Below are positions 6,008-64,000 of a DNA stretch of 64,000 bases, piece after piece; position 1 is the stretch's first letter, and every line of letters starts with the position of its first letter. The stretch lies in the NCBI RefSeq assembly GCF_001677475.2, contig NZ_CP015229.1, one strand, 5' to 3'. The position numbers and the translations under genes were made by a program. This stretch comes from Escherichia coli (lineage in GTDB: Bacteria > Pseudomonadota > Gammaproteobacteria > Enterobacterales > Enterobacteriaceae). Below the pieces are notes generated by a model. The model was not told the origin of the DNA and searched no databases. It worked only from the letters and a program-made list of their open reading frames with translations.

Positions 6008-12071
<6,064 letters not shown>

Positions 12072-30755: not shown

Positions 30756-30790
30756 GTGGCCGACAGATCGTCGGCCACATTACTTTTTAC
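30756..30790 (+). terminator. intrinsic terminator downstream of sppA
   Basis: 9-bp stem gtggccgac/gtcggccac followed by attacttttt. Confidence 0.7.
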
Positions 30791-30909
30791 GTCGACGAAT
30801 CCTCTTCCCGCTGTCTCACCACATATTTCCTTATCCGCATAGTATCAGGTGCGCTCCCCCTGCCTCACGTATATACTTTTGCTCTTTCGATATCATTCAT
30901 ATCAATATC

Positions 30910-31926
30910 ATGCAAAAGAAATCAATTTACGTTGCCTACACGGGCGGGACCATCGGGATGCAGCGTTCCGAGCAGGGTTATATTCCGGTGTCAGGTCATC
31001 TACAACGCCAACTGGCGCTGATGCCGGAATTCCATCGCCCGGAGATGCCAGATTTCACCATTCATGAATATACGCCGTTGATGGATTCTTCTGATATGAC
31101 GCCAGAAGACTGGCAGCATATTGCTGAAGATATTAAAGCGCACTATGACGACTATGATGGTTTTGTCATTCTGCACGGCACCGATACGATGGCATATACC
31201 GCCTCTGCGCTGTCGTTCATGCTCGAAAATCTCGGTAAACCGGTCATTGTGACAGGGTCACAAATCCCGCTAGCTGAGTTACGCTCTGACGGACAAATTA
31301 ATCTGCTGAATGCGTTGTACGTTGCGGCGAATTATCCGATCAACGAAGTAACGCTCTTTTTCAATAACCGATTGTATCGCGGCAACCGCACTACCAAAGC
31401 CCATGCCGATGGTTTTGATGCGTTTGCCTCTCCAAACCTTCCTCCGTTACTGGAAGCAGGTATCCATATTCGTCGTTTGAATACACCACCCGCCCCGCAC
31501 GGTGAAGGGGAATTGATCGTTCATCCAATCACCCCACAACCAATTGGCGTAGTGACGATTTATCCGGGGATTTCTGCTGACGTCGTGCGCAATTTTCTGC
31601 GCCAACCGGTGAAAGCATTGATTCTGCGCTCATATGGCGTGGGTAATGCGCCACAAAACAAAGCCTTCCTGCAGGAATTACAAGAAGCCAGCGATCGCGG
31701 TATTGTGGTGGTCAACCTGACACAATGTATGTCCGGTAAAGTGAACATGGGTGGTTATGCCACTGGTAACGCCCTCGCCCATGCCGGCGTTATTGGCGGT
31801 GCAGATATGACTGTAGAAGCCACGCTAACCAAACTGCATTACCTGCTTAGCCAGGAACTGGATACTGAAACCATTCGCAAGGTCATGAGCCAAAACCTGC
31901 GCGGCGAACTGACGCCAGATGATTAA
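30910..31926 (+). CDS. ansA: cytoplasmic L-asparaginase I
   Basis: ORF track 338 aa MQKKSIYVAYTGGTIGMQRS... Confidence 0.95.
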   Translation: MQKKSIYVAYTGGTIGMQRSEQGYIPVSGHLQRQLALMPEFHRPEMPDFTIHEYTPLMDSSDMTPEDWQHIAEDIKAHYDDYDGFVILHGTDTMAYTASALSFMLENLGKPVIVTGSQIPLAELRSDGQINLLNALYVAANYPINEVTLFFNNRLYRGNRTTKAHADGFDAFASPNLPPLLEAGIHIRRLNTPPAPHGEGELIVHPITPQPIGVVTIYPGISADVVRNFLRQPVKALILRSYGVGNAPQNKAFLQELQEASDRGIVVVNLTQCMSGKVNMGGYATGNALAHAGVIGGADMTVEATLTKLHYLLSQELDTETIRKVMSQNLRGELTPDD

Positions 31927-31936
31927 GGAGACTGCA

Positions 31937-32578
31937 ATGCCCCCTCGCGCCCTGTTACTGGTCGATTTACAAAATGATTTCTGTGCTGGTGGCGCGCTCG
32001 CCGTGCCGGAGGGTGACAGTACGGTGGATGTCGCTAACCGCCTGATTGACTGGTGCCAGTCGCGCGGTGAAGCGGTTATCGCCAGTCAGGACTGGCACCC
32101 GGCGAATCACGGCAGTTTTGCCAGTCAGCACGGTGTAGAGCCTTATACGCCAGGCCAACTCGACGGTTTGCCACAAACCTTCTGGCCAGATCACTGTGTG
32201 CAGAACAGTGAAGGCGCACAATTACATCCGTTACTGAACCAAAAAGCGATCGCAGCGGTGTTCCATAAAGGCGAAAATCCTTTAGTTGACAGTTACAGTG
32301 CCTTTTTTGATAACGGCCGTCGGCAGAAAACCTCGCTTGATGACTGGTTACGCGATCATGAAATCGATGAATTGATCGTTATGGGCCTGGCTACTGACTA
32401 TTGCGTGAAGTTTACCGTGCTGGACGCGTTACAGTTAGGTTATAAGGTAAACGTGATTACCGATGGTTGTCGTGGCGTGAATATCCAGCCCCAGGACAGT
32501 GCGCACGCGTTTATGGAGATGTCAGCAGCTGGGGCAACGCTATATACGCTGGCAGACTGGGAAGAGACGCAGGGGTAA
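31937..32578 (+). CDS. pncA: nicotinamidase/pyrazinamidase
   Basis: ORF track 219 aa trimmed to MPPRALLLVDLQNDFCAGGAL... Confidence 0.9.
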   Translation: MPPRALLLVDLQNDFCAGGALAVPEGDSTVDVANRLIDWCQSRGEAVIASQDWHPANHGSFASQHGVEPYTPGQLDGLPQTFWPDHCVQNSEGAQLHPLLNQKAIAAVFHKGENPLVDSYSAFFDNGRRQKTSLDDWLRDHEIDELIVMGLATDYCVKFTVLDALQLGYKVNVITDGCRGVNIQPQDSAHAFMEMSAAGATLYTLADWEETQG

Positions 32579-32598
32579 TATTAGTTGAATTCATCTCT

Positions 32599-32629
32599 GG
32601 CCTACATTTCCTCAATGACATTGTAGGCC
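32599..32629. repeat. perfect 8-bp inverted repeat ggcctaca-N15-tgtaggcc (REP-like) in the pncA-yeaC spacer
   Basis: Read directly from sequence; GTAGGCC is a typical REP terminal motif. Confidence 0.6.
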
Positions 32630-32738
32630 AGATAATACTTGTCAGTGTTGCATTTAACCTACTTACAGCTAAAACACGACGTCCGAACAAGTATATTTGC
32701 CCTCCCTTAATAACAGGCTTAAATACTAGATAACTCAT

Positions 32739-33011
32739 TCACTTAAACATGGCAATAGGCTTTGCTGAGATACCAAAATCTTCTTTTAACTGCTGTTTGC
32801 TCTTCATGACCATCTGACCATTTGTGTCAATTGTCATATGCTGTGCTTCGGTATTATGGCGGGCTTGCCACAGCATCACCAATTGCAGGCAGTTCTCTTT
32901 TTGTTCCTCGGTCAACGCACCGCCATCGGGCCATTTCCCCAGTTCAACGGCGGTCGACAAACGCTGGTATACCTCAGGCGTCATGCTGTTGATAATGTCA
33001 TCAAGATTCAT
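32739..33011 (-). CDS. yeaC: DUF1315 protein
   Basis: ORF track 105 aa trimmed to ATG at 33009-33011 (MNLDDIINSMTPEVYQRL...). Confidence 0.8.
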   Translation of the reverse strand: MNLDDIINSMTPEVYQRLSTAVELGKWPDGGALTEEQKENCLQLVMLWQARHNTEAQHMTIDTNGQMVMKSKQQLKEDFGISAKPIAMFK

Positions 33012-33052
33012 AATTTTTCCGCTCCTGTGGAATAAGTTGCTGAATCGTTTTT

Positions 33053-33466
33053 TCAACCGTTGATTTCTTCGCCGTTTTCACCATCAGTGAAGCGTAAAGA
33101 AGCAGAGTTAACACAATAACGTTCGCCCGTTGGCTGCGGCCCGTCAGGGAAGACATGCCCCAGATGGGCATCACAGTTACCGCAACGAATTTCTATGCGC
33201 TGCATTCCATGTGACAAGTCTTTGATATAACGAATGGATTCTTCACTCACCGGTTCGTAGAAACTGGGCCAGCCACAGCCGGAATCATACTTGGTTTGGG
33301 AATGAAACAGCGGGGCATCGCAGATCAAACAGTGATATACGCCGTCACGCTTGTTATGCAGTAAACGACCCGTAAATGGCGGCTCTGTCCCATGATTCTG
33401 CGTCACGTAAAACTGCATCTCGGACAAATTTTTTTTCAGTTCTTCTGCCGAAGGTTTATTAGCCAT
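33053..33466 (-). CDS. msrB: peptide methionine sulfoxide reductase B
   Basis: ORF track 147 aa trimmed to [33 protein letters not shown]...; CxxC pairs. Confidence 0.9.
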
Positions 33467-33736
33467 TTGCTCACATCTCACTTTAATCGTGCTCACATTA
33501 CGTGACTGATTCTAACAAAACATTAACACCAACTGGCAAAATTTTGTCCTAAACTTGATCTCGACGAAATGGCTGCACCTAAATCGTGATGAAAATCACA
33601 TTTTTATCGTAATTGCCCTTTAAAATTCGGGGCGCCGACCCCATGTGGTCTCAAGCCCAAAGGAAGAGTGAGGCGAGTCAGTCGCGTAATGCTTAGGCAC
33701 AGGATTGATTTGTCGCAATGATTGACACGATTCCGC

Positions 33737-54068: not shown

Positions 54069-54271
54069 TCGTTCTTTGCAGTAAATAACCTGCGTCATTT
54101 CACCTTTTATTGTTTCCGTTTCGTGTTTTATGGCTTTCCGTATTCTTAATTGTTTAATTTATGTAACATGCAAATAATCAATTTGTTAATCACGACATAC
54201 AACTCATTACCCTGCAAATAATTACAACTGGCAAAAGCCAGAGACGGGCTTTTATGCCCAGGAGATGACTC

Positions 54272-55882
54272 ATGATGAGCAATGTTAAGAAAAAAGATGT
54301 GCCGCTGATAAGCATCAGCCTGGTGGCCATTCTTTTCATCGCAGCTGCATTAAGCCTTTTCCCACAACAATCGGCCGACGCGGCCAACGCAATATACACT
54401 TTTGTTACGCGTACGTTAGGTTCCGCCGTACAGGTATTGGTTTTGCTGGCAATGGGACTGGTGATTTATTTAGCCACCAGTAAATACGGCAATATTCGTC
54501 TTGGCGAAGGAAAACCGGAATACAGCACGCTCTCCTGGCTGTTTATGTTTATTTGTGCCGGTTTAGGTTCTTCTACGCTTTATTGGGGGGTTGCTGAATG
54601 GGCCTATTATTATCAAACGCCTGGATTAAATATCGCACCGCGTTCACAACAGGCACTCGAATTTAGCGTTCCCTACTCCTTCTTCCACTGGGGCATCAGC
54701 GCCTGGGCAACTTATACGCTGGCCTCATTAATCATGGCTTATCACTTTCATGTGCGGAAAAATAAAGGGCTGAGCCTTTCCGGCATTATTGCTGCTATTA
54801 CCGGCGTTCGCCCGCAAGGCCCGTGGGGGAAACTGGTCGATTTGATGTTCCTGATCGCCACTGTCGGCGCACTGACCATTTCCCTTGTTGTCACCGCAGC
54901 AACCTTTACCCGTGGGCTTTCCGCGCTGACCGGTTTACCCGATAACTTTACCGTACAGGCATTTGTGATCCTGCTTTCCGGCGGCATTTTTTGCCTAAGC
55001 TCGTGGATTGGTATCAACAACGGTTTGCAACGTCTAAGCAAAATGGTTGGCTGGGGCGCGTTCCTGCTGCCATTACTGGTGCTGATTGTCGGTCCAACCG
55101 AATTTATTACCAACAGCATCATCAATGCCATCGGCCTGACCACGCAAAACTTCCTGCAAATGAGCTTATTCACCGATCCGCTTGGCGATGGTTCATTTAC
55201 CCGCAACTGGACCGTTTTCTACTGGCTGTGGTGGATCTCATACACGCCTGGCGTAGCAATGTTTGTCACCCGCGTTTCCCGCGGTCGTAAGATTAAAGAA
55301 GTTATCTGGGGACTGATCCTCGGCAGCACCGTCGGTTGCTGGTTCTTCTTCGGCGTAATGGAAAGCTATGCCATTCACCAGTTTATCAATGGTGTAATCA
55401 ACGTCCCACAGGTGCTGGAAACACTGGGCGGCGAGACAGCTGTGCAGCAAGTTCTGATGTCGTTGCCAGCCGGTAAATTGTTCCTCGCCGCATACCTGGG
55501 CGTGATGATTATTTTCCTTGCCTCGCATATGGATGCGGTGGCCTACACCATGGCGGCAACCAGTACGCGTAATCTCCAGGAAGGTGACGATCCTGACCGT
55601 GGGCTGCGTCTTTTCTGGTGCGTGGTAATTACCCTGATCCCGCTTTCAATTCTTTTCACTGGCGCGTCGCTGGAAACGATGAAAACCACCGTCGTACTCA
55701 CAGCCCTTCCGTTCCTCGTCATTTTACTGGTGAAAGTCGGCGGATTTATTCGCTGGCTGAAACAGGATTACGCCGACATTCCGGCTCATCAAGTTGAACA
55801 TTATCTCCCGCAGACACCGGTTGAAGTCCTGGAAAAAACGCCAGTGCTCCCTGCGGGAACCGTATTCAAAGGCGACAACTGA
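54272..55882 (+). CDS. yeaV: BCCT-family transporter (betaine/carnitine/choline type)
   Basis: ORF track 536 aa; start may lie further downstream. Confidence 0.8.
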
Positions 55883-55913
55883 GCGCCATCATCCTAACGA
55901 TAAAGGTATCCCT

Positions 55914-57038
55914 ATGAGCAATCTGAGCCCTGACTTTGTACTACCCGAAAATTTTTGCGCTAACCCGCAAGAGGCGTGGACCATTCCTGCCCGTTTTTAT
56001 ACCGATCAGAACGCCTTTGAACACGAAAAAGAGAGCGTCTTCGCCAAAAGCTGGATTTGCGTCGCTCATAGCAGCGAACTGGCGAATGCCAATGATTATG
56101 TGACGCGTGAGATCATTGGCGAAAGCATCGTGCTGGTACGTGGTCGTGATAAGGTTTTGCGCGCGTTCTATAACGTTTGCCCGCACCGTGGTCATCAGTT
56201 ATTGAGCGGCGAAGGGAAAGCGAAAAATGTGATTACCTGCCCGTATCACGCCTGGGCATTCAAACTCGATGGTAACCTGGCCCATGCGCGTAACTGCGAA
56301 AACGTCGCCAATTTCGATAGCGACAAAGCGCAACTGGTTCCAGTACGTCTGGAAGAATATGCCGGATTCGTCTTCATCAACATGGACCCCAACGCCACCA
56401 GCGTAGAAGATCAGTTACCCGGTCTGGGCGCGAAAGTGCTGGAAGCCTGCCCGGAAGTCCACGATCTGAAACTGGCGGCCCGCTTTACCACCCGCACGCC
56501 TGCCAACTGGAAGAACATTGTCGATAACTATCTCGAGTGCTATCACTGTGGTCCGGCGCATCCAGGTTTCTCCGACTCCGTACAGGTTGATCGTTACTGG
56601 CACACCATGCACGGTAACTGGACGCTGCAATACGGTTTCGCCAAACCGTCAGAACAGTCTTTCAAATTCGAAGAGGGCACGGATGCGGCATTCCACGGTT
56701 TCTGGCTGTGGCCGTGCACGATGCTGAACGTCACCCCAATCAAAGGGATGATGACGGTCATTTATGAATTCCCGGTGGATTCTGAAACTACCCTGCAAAA
56801 CTACGATATTTACTTCACCAATGAAGAGTTAACCGACGAGCAAAAATCGCTGATTGAGTGGTATCGCGATGTGTTCCGTCCGGAAGATTTACGTCTGGTT
56901 GAAAGCGTACAGAAAGGGCTGAAATCGCGTGGCTATCGTGGTCAGGGGCGCATCATGGCCGACAGTAGCGGTAGCGGAATTTCCGAACATGGTATCGCCC
57001 ACTTCCATAATCTGCTGGCGCAGGTGTTTAAGGACTAA
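55914..57038 (+). CDS. yeaW: Rieske [2Fe-2S] oxygenase subunit (carnitine monooxygenase CntA-like)
   Basis: Internal ATG at 55914 (MSNLSPDFVLPENF...); Rieske motif CPHRG...CPYHAW. Confidence 0.85.
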   Translation: MSNLSPDFVLPENFCANPQEAWTIPARFYTDQNAFEHEKESVFAKSWICVAHSSELANANDYVTREIIGESIVLVRGRDKVLRAFYNVCPHRGHQLLSGEGKAKNVITCPYHAWAFKLDGNLAHARNCENVANFDSDKAQLVPVRLEEYAGFVFINMDPNATSVEDQLPGLGAKVLEACPEVHDLKLAARFTTRTPANWKNIVDNYLECYHCGPAHPGFSDSVQVDRYWHTMHGNWTLQYGFAKPSEQSFKFEEGTDAAFHGFWLWPCTMLNVTPIKGMMTVIYEFPVDSETTLQNYDIYFTNEELTDEQKSLIEWYRDVFRPEDLRLVESVQKGLKSRGYRGQGRIMADSSGSGISEHGIAHFHNLLAQVFKD

Positions 57039-57093
57039 TGACATCGGCGGCGGTATTTTCCGCCGCTGGGCTGATTTTTGATGGAGTACAGCA

Positions 57094-58059
57094 ATGTCAG
57101 ACTATCAAATGTTTGAAGTACAGGTGAGCCAGGTTGAACCGCTTACAGAACAGGTGAAACGCTTCACGCTGGTGGCAACCGATAGCAAACCATTACCTGC
57201 GTTTACTGGAGGAAGTCACGTCATTGTGCAGATGAGCGATGGTGATAACCAGTACAGCAATGCGTATTCACTACTGAGTTCGCCGCATGACACCTCTTGT
57301 TATCAGATTGCCGTTCGGCTGGAGGAAAACTCGCGCGGCGGTTCCCGCTTTTTGCATCAGCAGGTAAAAGTGGGCGATCGGTTAACGATTTCAACGCCTA
57401 ATAACCTGTTTGCGCTAATTCCCTCGGCCAGAAAGCATCTGTTTATCGCGGGCGGCATTGGTATCACCCCTTTCCTGTCGCACATGGCAGAGTTGCAACA
57501 CAGCGACGTCGACTGGCAGCTACATTACTGCACGCGAAATCCAGAAAGTTGCGCATTTCGTGATGAGCTAGTCCAACATCCGCAGACGGATAAAATCCAT
57601 TTTCATCACTCATCGACCGGAACGCGTCTTGAATTAGCGCGATTATTGGCGGATATCGAACCTGGCACACATGTTTATACCTGTGGCCCCGAGGCGCTAA
57701 ATGAAGCGGTAAGAAGTGAAGCTGCGCGTCTGGACATCGCCGCCGATACGATGCACTTTGAACAATTTGCGATTGAAGACAAAACCGGCGATGCATTTAC
57801 CCTGGTGCTTGCCCGTTCCGGTAAAGAGTTTGTGGTGCCGGAAGAGATGACTATTTTGCAGGTTATTGAAAATAATAAAGCAGCGAAAGTGGAATGTTTA
57901 TGTCGTGAAGGGGTATGCGGAACCTGCGAAACGGCAATACTGGAAGGTGAAGCTGACCATCGGGATCAGTATTTTAGCGATGAAGAGCGTGCCAGCCAGC
58001 AAAGTATGTTGATCTGTTGTTCGCGTGCGAAGGGTAAACGCCTGGTGTTGGATTTGTAG
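57094..58059 (+). CDS. yeaX: oxygenase reductase subunit (FNR-like plus plant-type 2Fe-2S ferredoxin domain, CntB-like)
   Basis: ORF track 321 aa; C-terminal CxxxxCxxC ferredoxin motif. Confidence 0.85.
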   Translation: MSDYQMFEVQVSQVEPLTEQVKRFTLVATDSKPLPAFTGGSHVIVQMSDGDNQYSNAYSLLSSPHDTSCYQIAVRLEENSRGGSRFLHQQVKVGDRLTISTPNNLFALIPSARKHLFIAGGIGITPFLSHMAELQHSDVDWQLHYCTRNPESCAFRDELVQHPQTDKIHFHHSSTGTRLELARLLADIEPGTHVYTCGPEALNEAVRSEAARLDIAADTMHFEQFAIEDKTGDAFTLVLARSGKEFVVPEEMTILQVIENNKAAKVECLCREGVCGTCETAILEGEADHRDQYFSDEERASQQSMLICCSRAKGKRLVLDL

Positions 58060-58063
58060 TTTG

Positions 58064-58105
58064 CCGAAGCCGGACTGAGCGCGCCCAGTCCGGCTTCGGA
58101 AGATT
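58064..58105 (+). terminator. strong hairpin between convergent yeaX and rnd
   Basis: 14-bp stem ccgaagccggactg/cagtccggcttcgg followed by aagatttta. Confidence 0.7.
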
Positions 58106-59233
58106 TTACTGCGGATATTCCTGCAATAAATTGTGTAATGCTTCCGCCATCAGCTCACCACGCCAGCCGGAAATCAGCTCCGGCAAATTGTTCTGCGGTT
58201 TCAGTTTCCAGTGCCAGTTCAGCAGTTGGTTGATTTGCCGACGCGATGCCAGCAATTCGGCGCTGATCTTGTGCGTTTCGCTCACGTCAGTAATCAGCGA
58301 CTTAATCGCTTTAAACGCTTTACGATAACCCGGCATGTCCATCAGGTTAAGCATCGGCTGCGGTAAGGCCTCTTCCGGCAATGTCTGCGCTTTTTCCACC
58401 AGCGCCAGCAGCGTTTTACCGTGAAAGCGGATTTCGCTACCGGATAAGCCCAGGCTGTCCAGTTCGCCTAAACTTCCCGGCATATAACGCGCTACCGACC
58501 ACAAATGCTCTTCACGCACGACAAAGTTCACCGCCAGATCGCGCTCCCGCGCCTTGCGCAGTCGCCAGTCGGCTAACAGTTGCAGACAGGCCAGTTGGCG
58601 TGTGCGTAACTGCCAGGCATTGGTGATATCACGCCAGGCATCTTCCGGTGCAACGACTTCCTGACGACGCATTTGCATCAGGCGGCATTCATCCAGCGCC
58701 GCAGGTAGCCAGCCGGAGGCCTCCGTTTCTACCATAAGCTTTGCGGTGATCGGTAACAGATACCAGACATCCGCCGCTGCGTATTCACACTGACGTTCGG
58801 TCAGCGGTCTGGCCAGCCAGTCGGTGCGCGATTCACTCTTGTCCAGCGTAACGCCGGAATACTCTTCCACCATGGAAGCGAAACCCCATGACATCGGGCG
58901 TCCGCAGAAGGCAGCAAGGATTTGCGTGTCAATCAGGGGTTGTGGTAATTCGCCAAAGACATTGAGGAACACTTCCAGATCTTCACTGCCTGCATGGAGA
59001 AATTTTGTGATGGACGGATCGCGCAGGATCGCTTTCAGCGGTGACCAGTCGGTGATCCCGAGTGGATCGATTAGCGCCAGATGCTCGCCATCGAAAAGTT
59101 GAATCAACCCCAGCTGCGGGTAATAAGTGCGCGTACGAACAAATTCAGTATCCAGGGCTATCGCCGGAAAGGCACGGACGGCTTCACACAAAGAAGCCAG
59201 CGCATCGTCCGTGGTAATCATTTGGTAATTCAA
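58106..59233 (-). CDS. rnd: ribonuclease D
   Basis: ORF track 375 aa MNYQMITTDDALASL... Confidence 0.9.
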   Translation of the reverse strand: MNYQMITTDDALASLCEAVRAFPAIALDTEFVRTRTYYPQLGLIQLFDGEHLALIDPLGITDWSPLKAILRDPSITKFLHAGSEDLEVFLNVFGELPQPLIDTQILAAFCGRPMSWGFASMVEEYSGVTLDKSESRTDWLARPLTERQCEYAAADVWYLLPITAKLMVETEASGWLPAALDECRLMQMRRQEVVAPEDAWRDITNAWQLRTRQLACLQLLADWRLRKARERDLAVNFVVREEHLWSVARYMPGSLGELDSLGLSGSEIRFHGKTLLALVEKAQTLPEEALPQPMLNLMDMPGYRKAFKAIKSLITDVSETHKISAELLASRRQINQLLNWHWKLKPQNNLPELISGWRGELMAEALHNLLQEYPQ

Positions 59234-59253
59234 ATTGTATTCTCTTTAGTGGG

Positions 59254-59286
59254 CGTCAAAAAAAACGCCGGATTAACCGGCGTCTG
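59254..59286 (-). terminator. intrinsic terminator downstream of fadD (the sRNA SroD is reported from the rnd-fadD interval in K-12)
   Basis: On the minus strand acgccgg-ttaa-ccggcgt followed by 8 T; the SroD link is from memory and low-confidence. Confidence 0.8.
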
Positions 59287-59302
59287 ACGACTGACTTAAC
59301 GC

Positions 59303-60988
59303 TCAGGCTTTATTGTCCACTTTGCCGCGCGCTTCGTCACGTAATTCTCGTCGCAAAATTTTTCCGACGTTAGATTTCGGTAACTCATCACGAAACTCCA
59401 CCAGCTTCGGTACTTTGTAGCCCGTGAGCTGACGGCGGCAAAAGGTCACCAGTGACTCTTCGGTAAGCGATGGATCTTTTTTCACTACGAAGATTTTCAC
59501 CGCTTCACCACTGGAGCCGGAAGGTACGCCAACAGCCGCGACTTCCTGTACGCCAGGATGCTGCATGACGACATCTTCAATCTCGTTGGGATAGACGTTA
59601 AAACCGGAAACCAGAATCATGTCTTTTTTACGATCGACAATGCGCAGGAATCCTTCTTCATCCATCACCGCGATGTCGCCGGTGTGTAACCAGCCATTTT
59701 TGATGATTTCATCGGTAGCATCCGGACGCTGCCAGTAACCCAGCATCACCTGCGGTCCTTTGACACAAAGCTCACCCGGTTGACCCGGTGGTACTTCATT
59801 ATCATCATCATCCACAAGTTTTGCTTCCGTCGACGGCACCGGCAAACCGATGCTACCACTATGATAATCAATATCATACGGGTTAACGCTCACCAGCGGC
59901 GCACACTCGGTCAGGCCATAACCTTCCAGCAGATACTGTCCTGTCAGTTTCACCCAACGTTCTGCCACCACTTGCTGAACAGGCATCCCTCCGCCTGCGG
60001 AAAGATGCAGACTGGAGAAATCCAGCTGCTGGAACTCTTTATTGTTCAGCAACGCATTGAACAAGGTGTTTACGCCGGTGATAGCGGTAAACGGATATTT
60101 CGCTAACTCTTTTACCAACCCTGGAATATCGCGCGGGTTAGTGATAAGCAGGTTCTGCCCACCCAGTTCGATAAACAGCAGGCAGTTAATGGTCAGGGCA
60201 AAAATGTGATAGAGCGGCAGTGCCGTTACTACCAGTTCTTTACCTGGATGCAGCAACGGCCCATAGGTGGCGTTGACCTGTTCCAGGTTCGCCAGCATAT
60301 TGCGGTGAGTCAGCATCGCGCCTTTCGCCACACCTGTGGTGCCGCCGGTGTATTGCAGGAAGGCTAAATCTTCCGGCACCAGTTCGGGTTTGACGTACTG
60401 CATCCGGTAGCCGTTATGCAGTGCGCTACGAAATGAAATGGCATCTGGCAGATGGTATTTCGGCACCAGACGCTTGATGTATTTAACAACAAAATTGACT
60501 ACCGTGCCTTTTGCCGTAGATAGCTGATCGCCCATACGGGTCAGAATTACGTGCTGAACGGCGGTTTTATCAACCACTTTTTCCAGAGTGTGGGCAAAGT
60601 TAGACACGATAACAATCGCCGATGCGCCGCTATCGTTAAGCTGATGCTCAAGTTCACGCGGGGTATACAACGGGTTAACGTTTACGACAATCATCCCGGC
60701 ACGCAAAATACCAAACAGCGCCACCGGATATTGCAATAAATTAGGCATCATCAACGCAACGCGATCGCCTTTCTTCAGTCCCAACCCTTGTTGCAAATAA
60801 GCGGCAAACGCGCGACTGCGTTCTTCCAGTTTGCGGAAGGTCATCACCTCCCCCATATTCACAAACGCGGGTTGATCGGCGTAGCGCGCGACCGACTGCT
60901 CAAACATATCTACCAGAGATTGATAACGGTCAGGGTTGATCTCCGTCGGAACGTCCGCGGGATAACGGTTAAGCCAAACCTTCTTCAA
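59303..60988 (-). CDS. fadD: long-chain-fatty-acid--CoA ligase; TTG start
   Basis: ORF track 583 aa trimmed to TTG at 60986-60988 ([25 protein letters not shown]...), 561 aa. Confidence 0.9.
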
Positions 60989-61060
60989 TTCTTCACCTCT
61001 AAAATGCGTGTTCGTCGTCATCGCAACCCCAAATGATATACATGCCGTTAACATAATATT

Positions 61061-61077
61061 AACTCATCATACCAGCT
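61061..61077 (-). promoter_or_regulatory. candidate FadR operator in the fadD promoter
   Basis: Minus strand reads AGCTGGTATGATGAGTT, resembling FadR boxes (CTGGT half-site), about 75-90 bp upstream of the fadD start. Confidence 0.45.
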
Positions 61078-61146
61078 TGATAATTACCCAACGAAAAGGT
61101 TGCGAAGCGCGTCACTATTTATTTTTATCTTTACCGTAAGAATGCA

Positions 61147-61180
61147 GAAACAGCGGACCAGCCGCTGTTTCTTTTTCTTT
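61147..61180 (+). terminator. plus-strand-oriented intrinsic-terminator-like hairpin in the fadD-yeaY spacer
   Basis: gaaacagcgg-acca-ccgctgtttc followed by tttttcttt on the plus strand; no plus-strand gene upstream. Confidence 0.5.
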
Positions 61181-61192
61181 AAAAACAAGCAA

Positions 61193-61774
61193 TTATTCAG
61201 TTACAACTGTTTGTACTCTCGCGGGGCCGGGATTATACCAACCCCATCCACCGTAGCCATAGGGCCAGCCACGACCACCATAAAACCATGGATCAATCGG
61301 CTGAGGCGGCATAATCACCTGCTGGGTTAAATGCCAACGTTTGTAACCCGTTACCTGCATCACCATAAATTTATAGGGCGTGTTGCCGATTTTGCCGTCA
61401 ACCGCACCGGTGATTGGCCCAACTACCGTAACCAGTTGTCCACGGAAATCTACCGGGTCCAGAAAACCGTTCACATCAGCATAAATGCGACCGCGAGAAG
61501 GTTCTCCCAGCGTCGGTCTGGCTCCGCTGTCCAGTGGTACGGTGGCAATTTCCAGGCGGGTTTTCCCTTGCTGGTTTTGTACCGCAACCACTTTGCCACC
61601 AAAGCGTGCCTCCTGACCAACGTACAGCTGCGGCGCACTCATCACCCGAACTAAATCTTGTTGCGGCGTGGGACTGCTGCCTTTAATGGCGTCCGGCACA
61701 GTGACACAACCGCTCAGCATTAGCGCAAACGTACCTGCCAGTATGCCTTTGATAACATTCTTTTGAACCGCCAT
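61193..61774 (-). CDS. yeaY: Slp-family outer membrane lipoprotein
   Basis: ORF track 193 aa with lipobox LSGC. Confidence 0.8.
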
Positions 61775-61813
61775 GATGCGACTCCTTTTTTTCTCAGGGC
61801 ATACTCTTAAGAT

Positions 61814-62509
61814 TCATTCTTTGCCCGGAAGTTTCTTCCATGCGACGTTGTTACGTAAATAAACCGGTTCGGCATGTTCCACCGCCACCGTTTTACCCTC
61901 GGCAAACATCTGACAAGCAATCGGCAGCATATCTTCTGCGGCGGGGAGTAACACTTCGCCATCGCGCAAAACCAACCCGCTCTCTTTACCGAGATCCGGC
62001 CAGGCTTGCCAGCCCGTCCCTACCGTCACCCATTCGCCGGAAAGCTGTTGCATTCGTTCATGAACGAGTTCGGGTTTGAGTACGGCTTCGGTTTCTTCAC
62101 CGTGCCAGATACCGTTTTCATCACGCTGATATTCGGCCCAGTAAACTTCGCCCATTCGCGCGTCAATGGCTGACAGCACGCGTGTTGCGCCGTTTTTGCG
62201 CCACGCCCCTTGCGCCATCGTCATTAGCGTGGAGACGCCAATCATCGGCAGCTCCGCGCCAAGCGCCAGCCCTTGCGCGATGCCAATACCAATGCGCACG
62301 CCAGTAAAGCTACCGGGGCCGCGCCCGTAAGCCAGAGCATTTATGTCCGTCAGGGAAGTTCCGCTGGTGGTCAGGATATCCTGCACCATCGGTAAGATTC
62401 GTTGAGTATGTTCACGAGGGCAAAGCTCAAAATGAGCGTTGACAGTACCGTCGTTCCACAGGGCGACAGAGCAGGCCTCTGTCGCGGTATCGATAGCCAG
62501 AATTCGCAT
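61814..62509 (-). CDS. tsaB: tRNA threonylcarbamoyladenosine biosynthesis protein TsaB
   Basis: ORF track 231 aa [17 protein letters not shown]... Confidence 0.85.
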
Positions 62510-62566
62510 GGGTCTTCGTGCTTAGATCAATAAAAAGGCGCGCATCATACCATACTCCATCACAAA

Positions 62567-64000
62567 TTACCTGGAGGATGGTATCGCAAGGAAACGAACC
62601 GCACGGGCAATGTCACGGGTGCGCGGCGCTGGCGGCAGACTGGCGAGAAACGTCGCGCCGTAAGGGCGCATCACCAGCCGATTATCGCAAATCACCAAAA
62701 CCCCTCGATCGTCGGCGTCGCGAATCAGTCGCCCTACCCCCTGTTTGAGAGTAATGACCGCATCCGGCAGCTGTACTTCATCGAACGGGTCGCCTCCGCG
62801 CAAACGGCAATCTTCCATGCGCGCTTTTAATAGTGGATCATCCGGTGAGGTAAACGGCAACTTGTCGATAATCACCAATGACAATGTATCGCCACGCACA
62901 TCCACCCCTTCCCAGAAGCTGCTGGTTGCCACAAGAAGCGCGTTACCGGCGCTGACAAATTGCTGCAACAGTTGCCCTTTGCTGGTTTCCCCCTGCAACA
63001 AAACGGGAAGCGTCATGGTAGCGCGGAACTGCTCGGCCAGATCGCGCATCATGGCGTGCGAGGTACAAAGCATAAAACAACGACCGTTGTTAGCCTCGAT
63101 GATCGGTCGCAGCATTGCCGCCAGTTGCCTTGCGGAACCCGGTTGATTGGTTTGCGGCAGGTTGCGCGGCACACAGAGTAACGCCTGGCGGCTGTAATCA
63201 AACGGGCTGGGTAACAGCAACGACTCTGCCTGTTCAATGCCAAGCCGCGAGGTAAAATGATGCAGATCGTCATTCACCGACAGCGTTGCTGAGGTAAAGA
63301 TCCAGCTACCTGGTTTTTGCGCCATTAACTCTTTGAATTTATCCGCCACGCTGAGCGGCGTGAGTGCCAGAGTAAAATGGCGCGAAGTGCATTCGTACCA
63401 GTAGCTGTAGCCCGGCTGATTGATCTCTTTTAGCCGTTTCAGCCGCGTGCGATACAACGTGGCGCGCTCAAATGCCGCATCCAGCAAGGCGGAACGCCCC
63501 AGCGACAGTTTCGCCACGTCATAACAAAGTTCCAGGGTGTCATCGAGCAGTAAAAACGCCCGTTGAATTTGCGGATTAGCTAACAGTTCGCGCAGGTTTC
63601 CGCGATAACCTGGCTCGCCTAATTGCAGACGAAAATCCTGCGCACTCTGGGCAAGACGGTCGGCGCATTTTTGTAACTGCTGAGTGTCTTTTAATTCGGT
63701 GCGATAGGCGATGGTGATGTCTTTTGCCAGGTCGAGCAGTTGTCGACTGGAGAGTGACTGACCAAAATACTGGCTGGCAATGTCGGGCAGTTGGTGGGCT
63801 TCGTCGAAGATCATCACGTCAGCTTCCGGGATCAGTTCGCCAAATCCACTCTCTTTCACCACCATATCCGCCAGAAAGAGATGATGGTTTACCACCACCA
63901 CATCGGCGTCCATCGCTTTTTTGCGTGCTTTGACTACAAAGCAATCTTTATACATCGGGCAGTCGCTGCCAAGGCAGTTATCGTTGGTGCTGGTGACAAG
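62567..64000 (-). CDS. yoaA: DinG-family ATP-dependent helicase YoaA; C-terminal part only, 5-prime end beyond the window
   Basis: Minus-strand frame open to the window end; ORF track lists 462 aa from an internal Met; DEAH box (IFDEAH) present. Confidence 0.85.
   Translation of the reverse strand, partial: LVTSTNDNCLGSDCPMYKDCFVVKARKKAMDADVVVVNHHLFLADMVVKESGFGELIPEADVMIFDEAHQLPDIASQYFGQSLSSRQLLDLAKDITIAYRTELKDTQQLQKCADRLAQSAQDFRLQLGEPGYRGNLRELLANPQIQRAFLLLDDTLELCYDVAKLSLGRSALLDAAFERATLYRTRLKRLKEINQPGYSYWYECTSRHFTLALTPLSVADKFKELMAQKPGSWIFTSATLSVNDDLHHFTSRLGIEQAESLLLPSPFDYSRQALLCVPRNLPQTNQPGSARQLAAMLRPIIEANNGRCFMLCTSHAMMRDLAEQFRATMTLPVLLQGETSKGQLLQQFVSAGNALLVATSSFWEGVDVRGDTLSLVIIDKLPFTSPDDPLLKARMEDCRLRGGDPFDEVQLPDAVITLKQGVGRLIRDADDRGVLVICDNRLVMRPYGATFLASLPPAPRTRDIARAVRFLAIPSSR

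Follow-up and report, generated by a model that had tools for sequence, protein, structure and literature searches.

The 64,000-nucleotide stretch of Escherichia coli DNA analyzed here, which we refer to as the window, has the "empty" form of a site already known to vary by presence or absence. The eight-gene sugar-acid catabolic cluster ydjLKJIHGFE is absent from it, and the genes pncA and yeaC converge on each other across 160 bp. This empty allele is probably an ancient deletion of the ydj island from a ydj-positive ancestor, still segregating in the species today.

Results

In the window, pncA (nicotinamidase/pyrazinamidase; 31937 to 32578, plus strand, stop codon included) is an intact open reading frame of 213 amino acids and the last gene of the ansA-pncA pair. 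It matches the annotated pncA of EC2641 and of K-12, with 98.9% nucleotide identity to K-12 up to position 32583. The convergent gene yeaC (DUF1315 family; 32739 to 33011, minus strand; 90 amino acids) is also intact and is annotated at the equivalent position in EC2641 and others, and Pfam DUF1315 is assigned in contigs of identical context. The ends of the two reading frames, at 32578 and 32739, agree with the 160-bp gap described in an earlier note on this DNA, and the intergenic spacer between them (32579 to 32738) is the empty allele of the pncA-yeaC variable site. The local gene order is sppA-ansA-pncA, then yeaC-msrB on the opposite strand, then gapA-yeaD.

In MG1655, pncA (b1768) ends at 1852528 and yeaC (b1777) starts at 1861702, and the 9,173 bp between them (the same in NEB10-beta) hold ydjE, ydjF, ydjG, ydjH, ydjI, ydjJ, ydjK, and ydjL (b1769 to b1776). 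The K-12 gene order given in the note is therefore correct, a gap of about 160 bp not being the K-12 state, and the genes missing from the window occupy exactly this site in both K-12 genomes. No part of the K-12 9.1-kb segment aligns anywhere in the 64-kb window. Against a K-12 derivative, the window aligns in order as three blocks (1 to 32583, 32729 to 54175, and 54400 to 63997) at 97.3 to 98.6% identity; the predicted colinearity outside ydj thus holds, with one other break of 224 bp. As proposed, a single indel suffices, at a size of about 9.0 kb instead of the suggested 10 kb. These identities, and a maximum of 98.5% to any complete E. coli genome, also bear out the view that the strain is not MG1655.

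The 224-bp segment (54176 to 54399) lies at the dmlA-yeaV boundary. It is found in the window and in 2930 complete E. coli genomes, about 1050 genomes have none of the whole region, and it is missing from the K-12 laboratory derivatives NEB10-beta, DH5a, and EPI300; the break is therefore a K-12-lineage deletion. In NEB10-beta, yeaV is annotated without its N terminus at this point.

The products of the ydj cluster are two MFS transporters, one DeoR regulator, one kinase, one aldolase, and three dehydrogenases/reductases; the MG1655 record names YdjH as L-glycero-L-galacto-octuluronate kinase and YdjI as the 1-phosphate aldolase. The enzymology of these gene products was reportedly worked out by Huddleston and Raushel in 2019, as cited in PMC9602453, which gives the natural substrate as not known. 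None of ydjE to ydjL, the genes by which a cluster of the L-glycero-L-galacto-octuluronate type is recognized, was found within the 64-kb window; loss of the pathway would be the expected consequence, and the strain presumably lacks it. In E. coli O157:H7 Z1816 (phylogroup E; locus L086, 13066 to 14279), an IS3-family insertion splits ydjE, which is annotated as a pseudogene, so that the cluster is inactivated there by another route.

The search of E. coli genomes that the note had recommended found the full 160-bp spacer in 1088 of 5426 complete genomes, one copy each, and the contiguous pncA-spacer-yeaC junction in 1089. The ydj cluster is indeed accessory, as had been suggested: ydjI is present in 4243 of the 5426 genomes, with a median of one location and a maximum of 2 in each. 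The ydjI and empty-junction counts, compared as totals, are compatible with mutual exclusion. A survey of meat-plant E. coli (PMC9602453, Microbiol Spectr 2022) describes the eight ydj genes together as a cluster of variable presence, and its Table 2 gives ydjI prevalences of 96.6% in phylogroup A, 29.9% in B1, 100% in B2, 50% in C, 100% in D, and 100% in E. The polymorphism is thus already in the literature, for the same eight genes in the same species, and is ordinary, known biology; the passages of that paper reached by term searches report prevalence and contain no empty-site sequence, junctions, REP context, or depth of allele divergence. Within E. coli, the empty allele seems to belong chiefly to phylogroup B1, an assignment drawn from this one paper and from a few serotypes (carriers include O111:H8 and O112ab:H8 strains).

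Over 22 kb of the window, no complete E. coli genome (n = 5,426) exceeds 98.5% identity, despite draft assemblies (GCA_018683295.1 and GCA_019135775.1) that match it at 100% and 99.99%, respectively, over 12 to 14 kb. The lineage of the window is therefore unrepresented among complete RefSeq genomes. The same drafts, which are independent and show the same junction, weigh against a collapsed or misjoined contig or a sampling artifact that hides a ydj cluster really present at the site, as does the identical junction in 1089 complete genomes. We found no point in support of such an artifact and assign it a negligible probability.

Several other variants were encountered in this neighborhood. 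E. coli BS-04 (locus L088, 5965 to 6036) carries a third allele with a 72-bp pncA-yeaC spacer, in which the left REP head described below is kept together with ~35 nt from the yeaC end of the window-type spacer, and the right REP and the private segment are gone. This allele looks like an empty allele that has been shortened once more; the TopB protein of this strain is identical to that of K-12. The plasmid-labelled sequence p8479-1 (locus L095, NZ_CP074995.1, 167 kb) contains, at 125455 to 141614, chromosomal ynjI-topB-…-pncA-yeaC-…-yeaH with the empty site; this is either chromosomal DNA captured in the manner of an F-prime or a fault in assembly or labelling. In E. coli VREC0761 (locus L089, 11389 to 12540), an IS30 element interrupts pncA. 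Between sppA and ansA, O157:H7 Z1816 carries an additional SIMPL-domain gene (locus L086, 9150 to 9860) that is absent from the window and K-12. Megablast alignments of O157 and Escherichia sp. E1V33 break at the sppA-ansA spacer (window 30779 to 30826), which makes it a second small site of variation, 2 kb away from the one studied here. Another variable spot adjoins topB, where CFT073 (locus L085, 1 to 4027) has Hsp70-family, J-domain, and hypothetical genes at the position of ynjI in K-12 and the relatives of the window.

The spacer contains a palindrome. The note had pointed out a perfect inverted repeat, GGCCTACA at 32599 to 32606 and TGTAGGCC at 32622 to 32629 with 15 nt between them. 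The repeat is real and longer than claimed, with perfect arms of 11 nt in place of 8 (TCTGGCCTACA, 32596 to 32606; TGTAGGCCAGA, 32622 to 32632), giving an 11-bp stem and a 15-nt loop across 32596 to 32632. Among 2000 shuffles of the spacer, 2 gave a perfect inverted repeat of 11 nt or more (p≈0.001). Both arms match the REP head motif GTAGGCCNGATAAG; they are two of its 6 occurrences in the window, where 0.82 would be expected. The left arm belongs to a decayed inverted REP of which the head alone is left (32592 to 32605, GTAGGCCAGAGATG on the minus strand, 2 mismatches, body fold of 0.0 kcal/mol). The right arm belongs to a truncated or decayed unit on the plus strand (32623 to 32659), with a head hit of 1 mismatch at 32623 to 32636. 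The GTAG tetranucleotides lie at 32623 to 32626 (plus strand) and 32602 to 32605 (minus strand). In the right-hand unit, GTAG, GCCAGAT, and AA … GC are present, with ATTTAAC as the 3′ outer stem instead of ATCTGGC.

A REP has been described as GTAG followed by an imperfect palindrome of 20 to 50 nt with an AA/GC bulge, often occurring in inverse pairs as BIMEs (PMC8266576). The window resembles REPs and BIMEs (PMC8266576, PMC2817692) in the extragenic location between convergent stop codons, in the order of GTAG, GCCNGAT, and the AA … GC bulge positions, and in the inverse orientation of two units with a short linker. It differs from them in that both units are decayed, the left reduced to its head and the right without its 3′ outer stem, and in that the stable hairpin joins the two heads instead of lying within one unit. 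Neither unit folds as a palindrome of ~29 to 37 nt with an AA/GC bulge (right, -0.6 kcal/mol; left, 0.0 kcal/mol), and the window therefore holds REP remnants here, not intact REPs. By comparison, the right-hand unit of ydj-positive alleles spans 36 to 37 nt and folds in the manner of genuine REPs, at -3.6 to -7.1 kcal/mol; the genuine REPs of the window fold at -8.0 and -10.1 kcal/mol. A genuine BIME just after gdhA (23778 to 23870), with two intact GTAG-type REPs head to head around a 33-nt A/T-rich linker, served as the internal reference for REP architecture; the palindrome heads share its relative orientation, with a linker of 15 nt as opposed to 33 nt. The MG1655 feature table has no REP entry between pncA and ydjE, and none at the undoubted gdhA BIME, our control. 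The palindrome comprises the GTAG-proximal heads of two head-to-head decayed REPs, a BIME-like remnant.

The hairpin is a property of both allele classes. It stands directly after pncA in the ydj-positive alleles of K-12, CFT073, O157:H7, and Escherichia sp. E1V33, and in every Escherichia allele examined (a set without E. fergusonii and a complete E. albertii) the REP-head pair adjoins pncA, with or without ydj. The 7-bp core of its stem, GGCCTAC/GTAGGCC, is the same in all 7 alleles compared, with a loop that differs among them, and the predicted DNA hairpin has a free energy of -10.4 kcal/mol in the window and -8.3 to -12.5 kcal/mol in the other alleles. Neither the GGCCTAC/GTAGGCC motif nor a REP head was found in the ydjL-yeaC spacer of five ydj-positive alleles or inside the island. 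The suggestion that the palindrome could be a "REP-type scar or recombination site" is thus right as to its REP relationship, both arms matching the head motif with 1 or 2 mismatches. Because the hairpin is also present in ydj-positive alleles and has no copy at the other end of the island, the palindrome is not a scar or recombination site of the indel, nor does it flank the island where the island is present: it stands on the left (pncA) side only.

The E. albertii type strain, NBRC 107761, was considered as an outgroup and rejected since, 1.6 kb past pncA, its contig breaks off in an ISAs1 element (locus L005, 2128 to 3701; ISAs1-family transposase). A 112-amino-acid membrane-protein ORF that follows pncA there is similar to a 117-amino-acid ORF at the Citrobacter werkmanii site (locus L018) and has no NCBIfam match.

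BLAST alone placed the breakpoints at 32583 and 32729, and allele-by-allele alignment shifted both inward. On the left, the two allele classes can be aligned through …GTAGGCCAGATAA…GTTGCAT, up to 32653, or up to 32659 if three transitions are allowed. The junction zone (32653 to 32660) lies 21 to 28 nt beyond the palindrome, in the 3′ half of the right-hand REP unit. After 32653, the ydj-positive alleles read CTGGC…, which completes the outer stem GCCAGAT/ATCTGGC, the AA/GC bulge, and the inner stem. The classes diverge at the CT in …GCATCTGGC of the intact ydj-positive REP, and the empty alleles continue with TTAACC…, so that the outer stem is not formed (-0.6 kcal/mol).

The ~42 nt that follow (32654 to 32695) are private to the empty class. 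A match of this segment to the ydjL-yeaC spacers of E1V33 and K-12, as a clean indel would leave, had been seen by eye and was rejected: local alignment with three ydj-positive right spacers gave no significant match (1000 shuffles, p of at least 0.09). No second copy of the segment exists in any E. coli genome of the complete set (n = 5426). It does match the empty allele of a second Escherichia species, represented by locus L008 (E = 3e-4). The last 43 nt before the yeaC stop (32696 to 32738) are again shared between the classes; in global alignments, the K-12 and CFT073 score was reached by 2 of 2000 shuffles and the L008 score by 0 of 2000. This right-hand segment corresponds to a decayed form of the ATCCCCTT…AAGGGGAT hairpin of ydj-positive alleles, a putative former terminator of yeaC. 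Two other origins of the junction were considered and set aside. A 9-nt direct repeat, GGCCAAATA, stands at both ends of the K-12 island, and a deletion between its copies was rejected on finding that the window continues like the sequence downstream of the left copy, not of the right. A long imported tract around the junction was rejected on finding that sliding identity stays at 98 to 100%, normal for E. coli, right up to the spacer.

Beyond these segments, the spacer has few distinguishing features. A permissive Rfam search of 31500 to 33600 returned only a chance IRES hit (E = 0.42), leaving the spacer without an Rfam family, and a pattern scan of the spacer found no sigma-70-like promoter and no intrinsic-terminator pattern. 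The minimum-free-energy folds of the two RNA strands each contain the head-to-head hairpin, which is the only strong structure in the spacer. Because folding of the whole spacer is only marginally better than that of shuffles (z = -2.1 and -1.85), we make no claim of structured RNA beyond the hairpin.

The spacer sequences suggest that the two allele classes are discrete and old. Over the 64 to 75 nt they share, a repeat-rich sample of sites that possibly evolves unusually fast, the empty allele and the E. coli ydj-positive alleles are 76.6 to 78.1% identical and differ in addition by an 11-nt indel, whereas the flanking genes of the window are 98 to 100% identical to those of other E. coli right up to the spacer. 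This divergence equals that of either class from other Escherichia species (77 to 81%), and the 11 nt are present in the window, L008, and E1V33 and missing only from E. coli ydj-positive alleles. L008, labelled E. coli SCPM-O-B-8794 and 91.4% identical to the window locally in the genome, has an empty spacer of 167 bp that can be aligned end to end with that of the window, private segment included (75%, E = 5e-21). Across identity bands in the complete E. coli genomes, no ydj-positive genome carries a window-type left spacer at high identity. 

These comparisons contradict a recent deletion, in the immediate ancestry of the strain, from a K-12-like allele by way of the REP-like inverted repeat, of which the palindrome would be the scar. 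Such an event would fit the position of the left junction, which falls in a REP unit no more than about 25 nt from the palindrome, and REP elements are known substrates of rearrangement. However, the palindrome is unchanged in position in ydj-positive alleles and no matching repeat exists at the other end of the island; the shared spacer differs by ~22% and an 11-nt indel next to genes that differ by 0 to 2%; and the same allele is found in 1088 other genomes, with a diverged form in another Escherichia species. We consider a recent event very improbable.

We then compared PncA-anchored loci from 80 species representatives, classified by tblastn, of which 66 hold both pncA and yeaC. Among these 66 Enterobacterales loci, the gap between the genes is at most 300 bp in 33, 301 to 1000 bp in 4, 1 to 3.5 kb in 26, and larger in 3. 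Adjacency within 300 bp, the commonest state, extends from Yersinia and Xenorhabdus to Phytobacter and Salmonella. The midsize inserts (9 of 26 examined) mostly encode a ChiD-type chitinase and in some cases a YajD-family HNH nuclease, and Kluyvera has a monooxygenase cluster at the site. ydjE to ydjL occupy it in Escherichia sp. E1V33, two Citrobacter species representatives, Klebsiella spallanzanii, and Yokenella, with protein identities similar to those of the flanking genes. Given this varied cargo across genera, the pncA-yeaC site is a general variable spot. It is like the regions of genome plasticity at convergent sites in Enterobacteriaceae, the same site holding nothing, ydj, ChiD, YajD, a monooxygenase cluster, or ISAs1. 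It differs from classical mobile genomic islands, which come with an integrase or transposase, insertion at a tRNA or tmRNA gene, and flanking direct repeats: the K-12 island consists of ydjE to ydjL only (transporters, regulator, and enzymes), no tRNA gene is present at the site, and neither the island nor the site shows any of these marks.

In Salmonella arizonae and Salmonella diarizonae, pncA is next to yeaC, and the spacer retains a 3′ remnant of ydjE (64 nt, 76.6% identity, E = 2.7e-8 against Citrobacter youngae; 35 nt, E = 5.6e-4 against K-12). The 3′ coding end of ydjE lies at about 10765 to 10828 in locus L062 and about 10698 to 10733 in locus L031, and REP-like sequences accompany it. 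By this remnant, ydj was at the pncA-yeaC site before Escherichia diverged and was deleted independently elsewhere, as in Salmonella.

Discussion

The origin of the empty allele turns on whether the site lost an island or never had one. In the latter case, the empty state would be ancestral in Escherichia, and ydj would have been inserted, or brought in by homologous replacement, beside the REP pair in other lineages. This possibility draws on the frequency of short pncA-yeaC gaps (33 of 66 loci), on the readiness of the site to accept varied cargo, on the lower GC content of the K-12 island (46.4%, versus 51.6% in the left flank), and on the empty allele having private sequence as well as 11 nt that two other species also possess. 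Against it, an inserted segment would have to start with exactly the CTGGC that completes the REP outer stem in three ydj-positive lineages, and both empty lineages hold only half a REP. The Salmonella empty sites contain a ydjE remnant, which places ydj at the site before Escherichia diverged, and ydj is near-universal in E. coli phylogroups A, B2, D, and E by the prevalences tabulated in PMC9602453 and present in the cryptic lineage E1V33. An ancestral empty site seems to us rather unlikely, though not implausible.

We favor a deletion of the island from a ydj-positive ancestor. Three ydj-positive lineages have an intact right-hand REP, and in the two empty lineages its 3′ outer stem is missing. 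REPs come into being as whole palindromes, which makes the half REP the derived state and favors a deletion that ended inside the REP; the Salmonella remnant and the many genera with ydj at the site also point to deletion. The left end of the indel lies inside the second REP, whole in ydj-positive alleles and truncated in empty ones, and the right end ~43 nt before the yeaC stop. The result would be an ancient deletion allele, common to another Escherichia species and now segregating in E. coli, around which recombination may have homogenized the flanking genes. The event is not demonstrably a clean deletion, since the private 42 nt have no detectable source in ydj-positive alleles. They may be what remains of a diverged, hypervariable yeaC-proximal spacer; between the ydjL-yeaC spacers of E1V33 and K-12, which run to about 360 nt, alignment stops after the first 184.

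A more elaborate form of the deletion hypothesis would be a trans-species polymorphism, in which an ancient ydj-deletion allele, produced by REP cleavage or recombination beside pncA, was kept beside the ydj-positive allele by niche-dependent selection across Escherichia species while recombination trimmed its linkage to the 160-bp spacer. A REP-associated transposase could be the cutter, at the CT beside REPs. We regard this scenario as a speculative one with little probability.

The hairpin after pncA probably acts as a putative mRNA 3′-end protector or weak terminator of the ansA-pncA transcript, a role suggested by general knowledge of REPs. A gene whose stop codon is followed by a REP at a distance of up to about 15 nt is reportedly expressed at a lower level (Liang, Rudd, and Deutscher, 2015). 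In K-12 the stem begins about 8 nt past the pncA stop and in the window 17 nt past it, and given these distances PncA levels could differ between the two alleles.

The practical value of the finding is small. The site offers a clean, PCR-sized marker (160 bp versus 9.2 kb) by which most B1-type E. coli can be told from other phylogroups, and an empty site predicts loss of a partly characterized sugar-acid pathway, which one study linked statistically to lactic-acid tolerance. Our additions to the known polymorphism are modest: the junction lies inside a truncated REP, and the empty allele appears old (~22% diverged) and is common to a second Escherichia species. They alter no established view, and they may interest work on the loss of accessory operons and on old indel alleles that persist under recombination.
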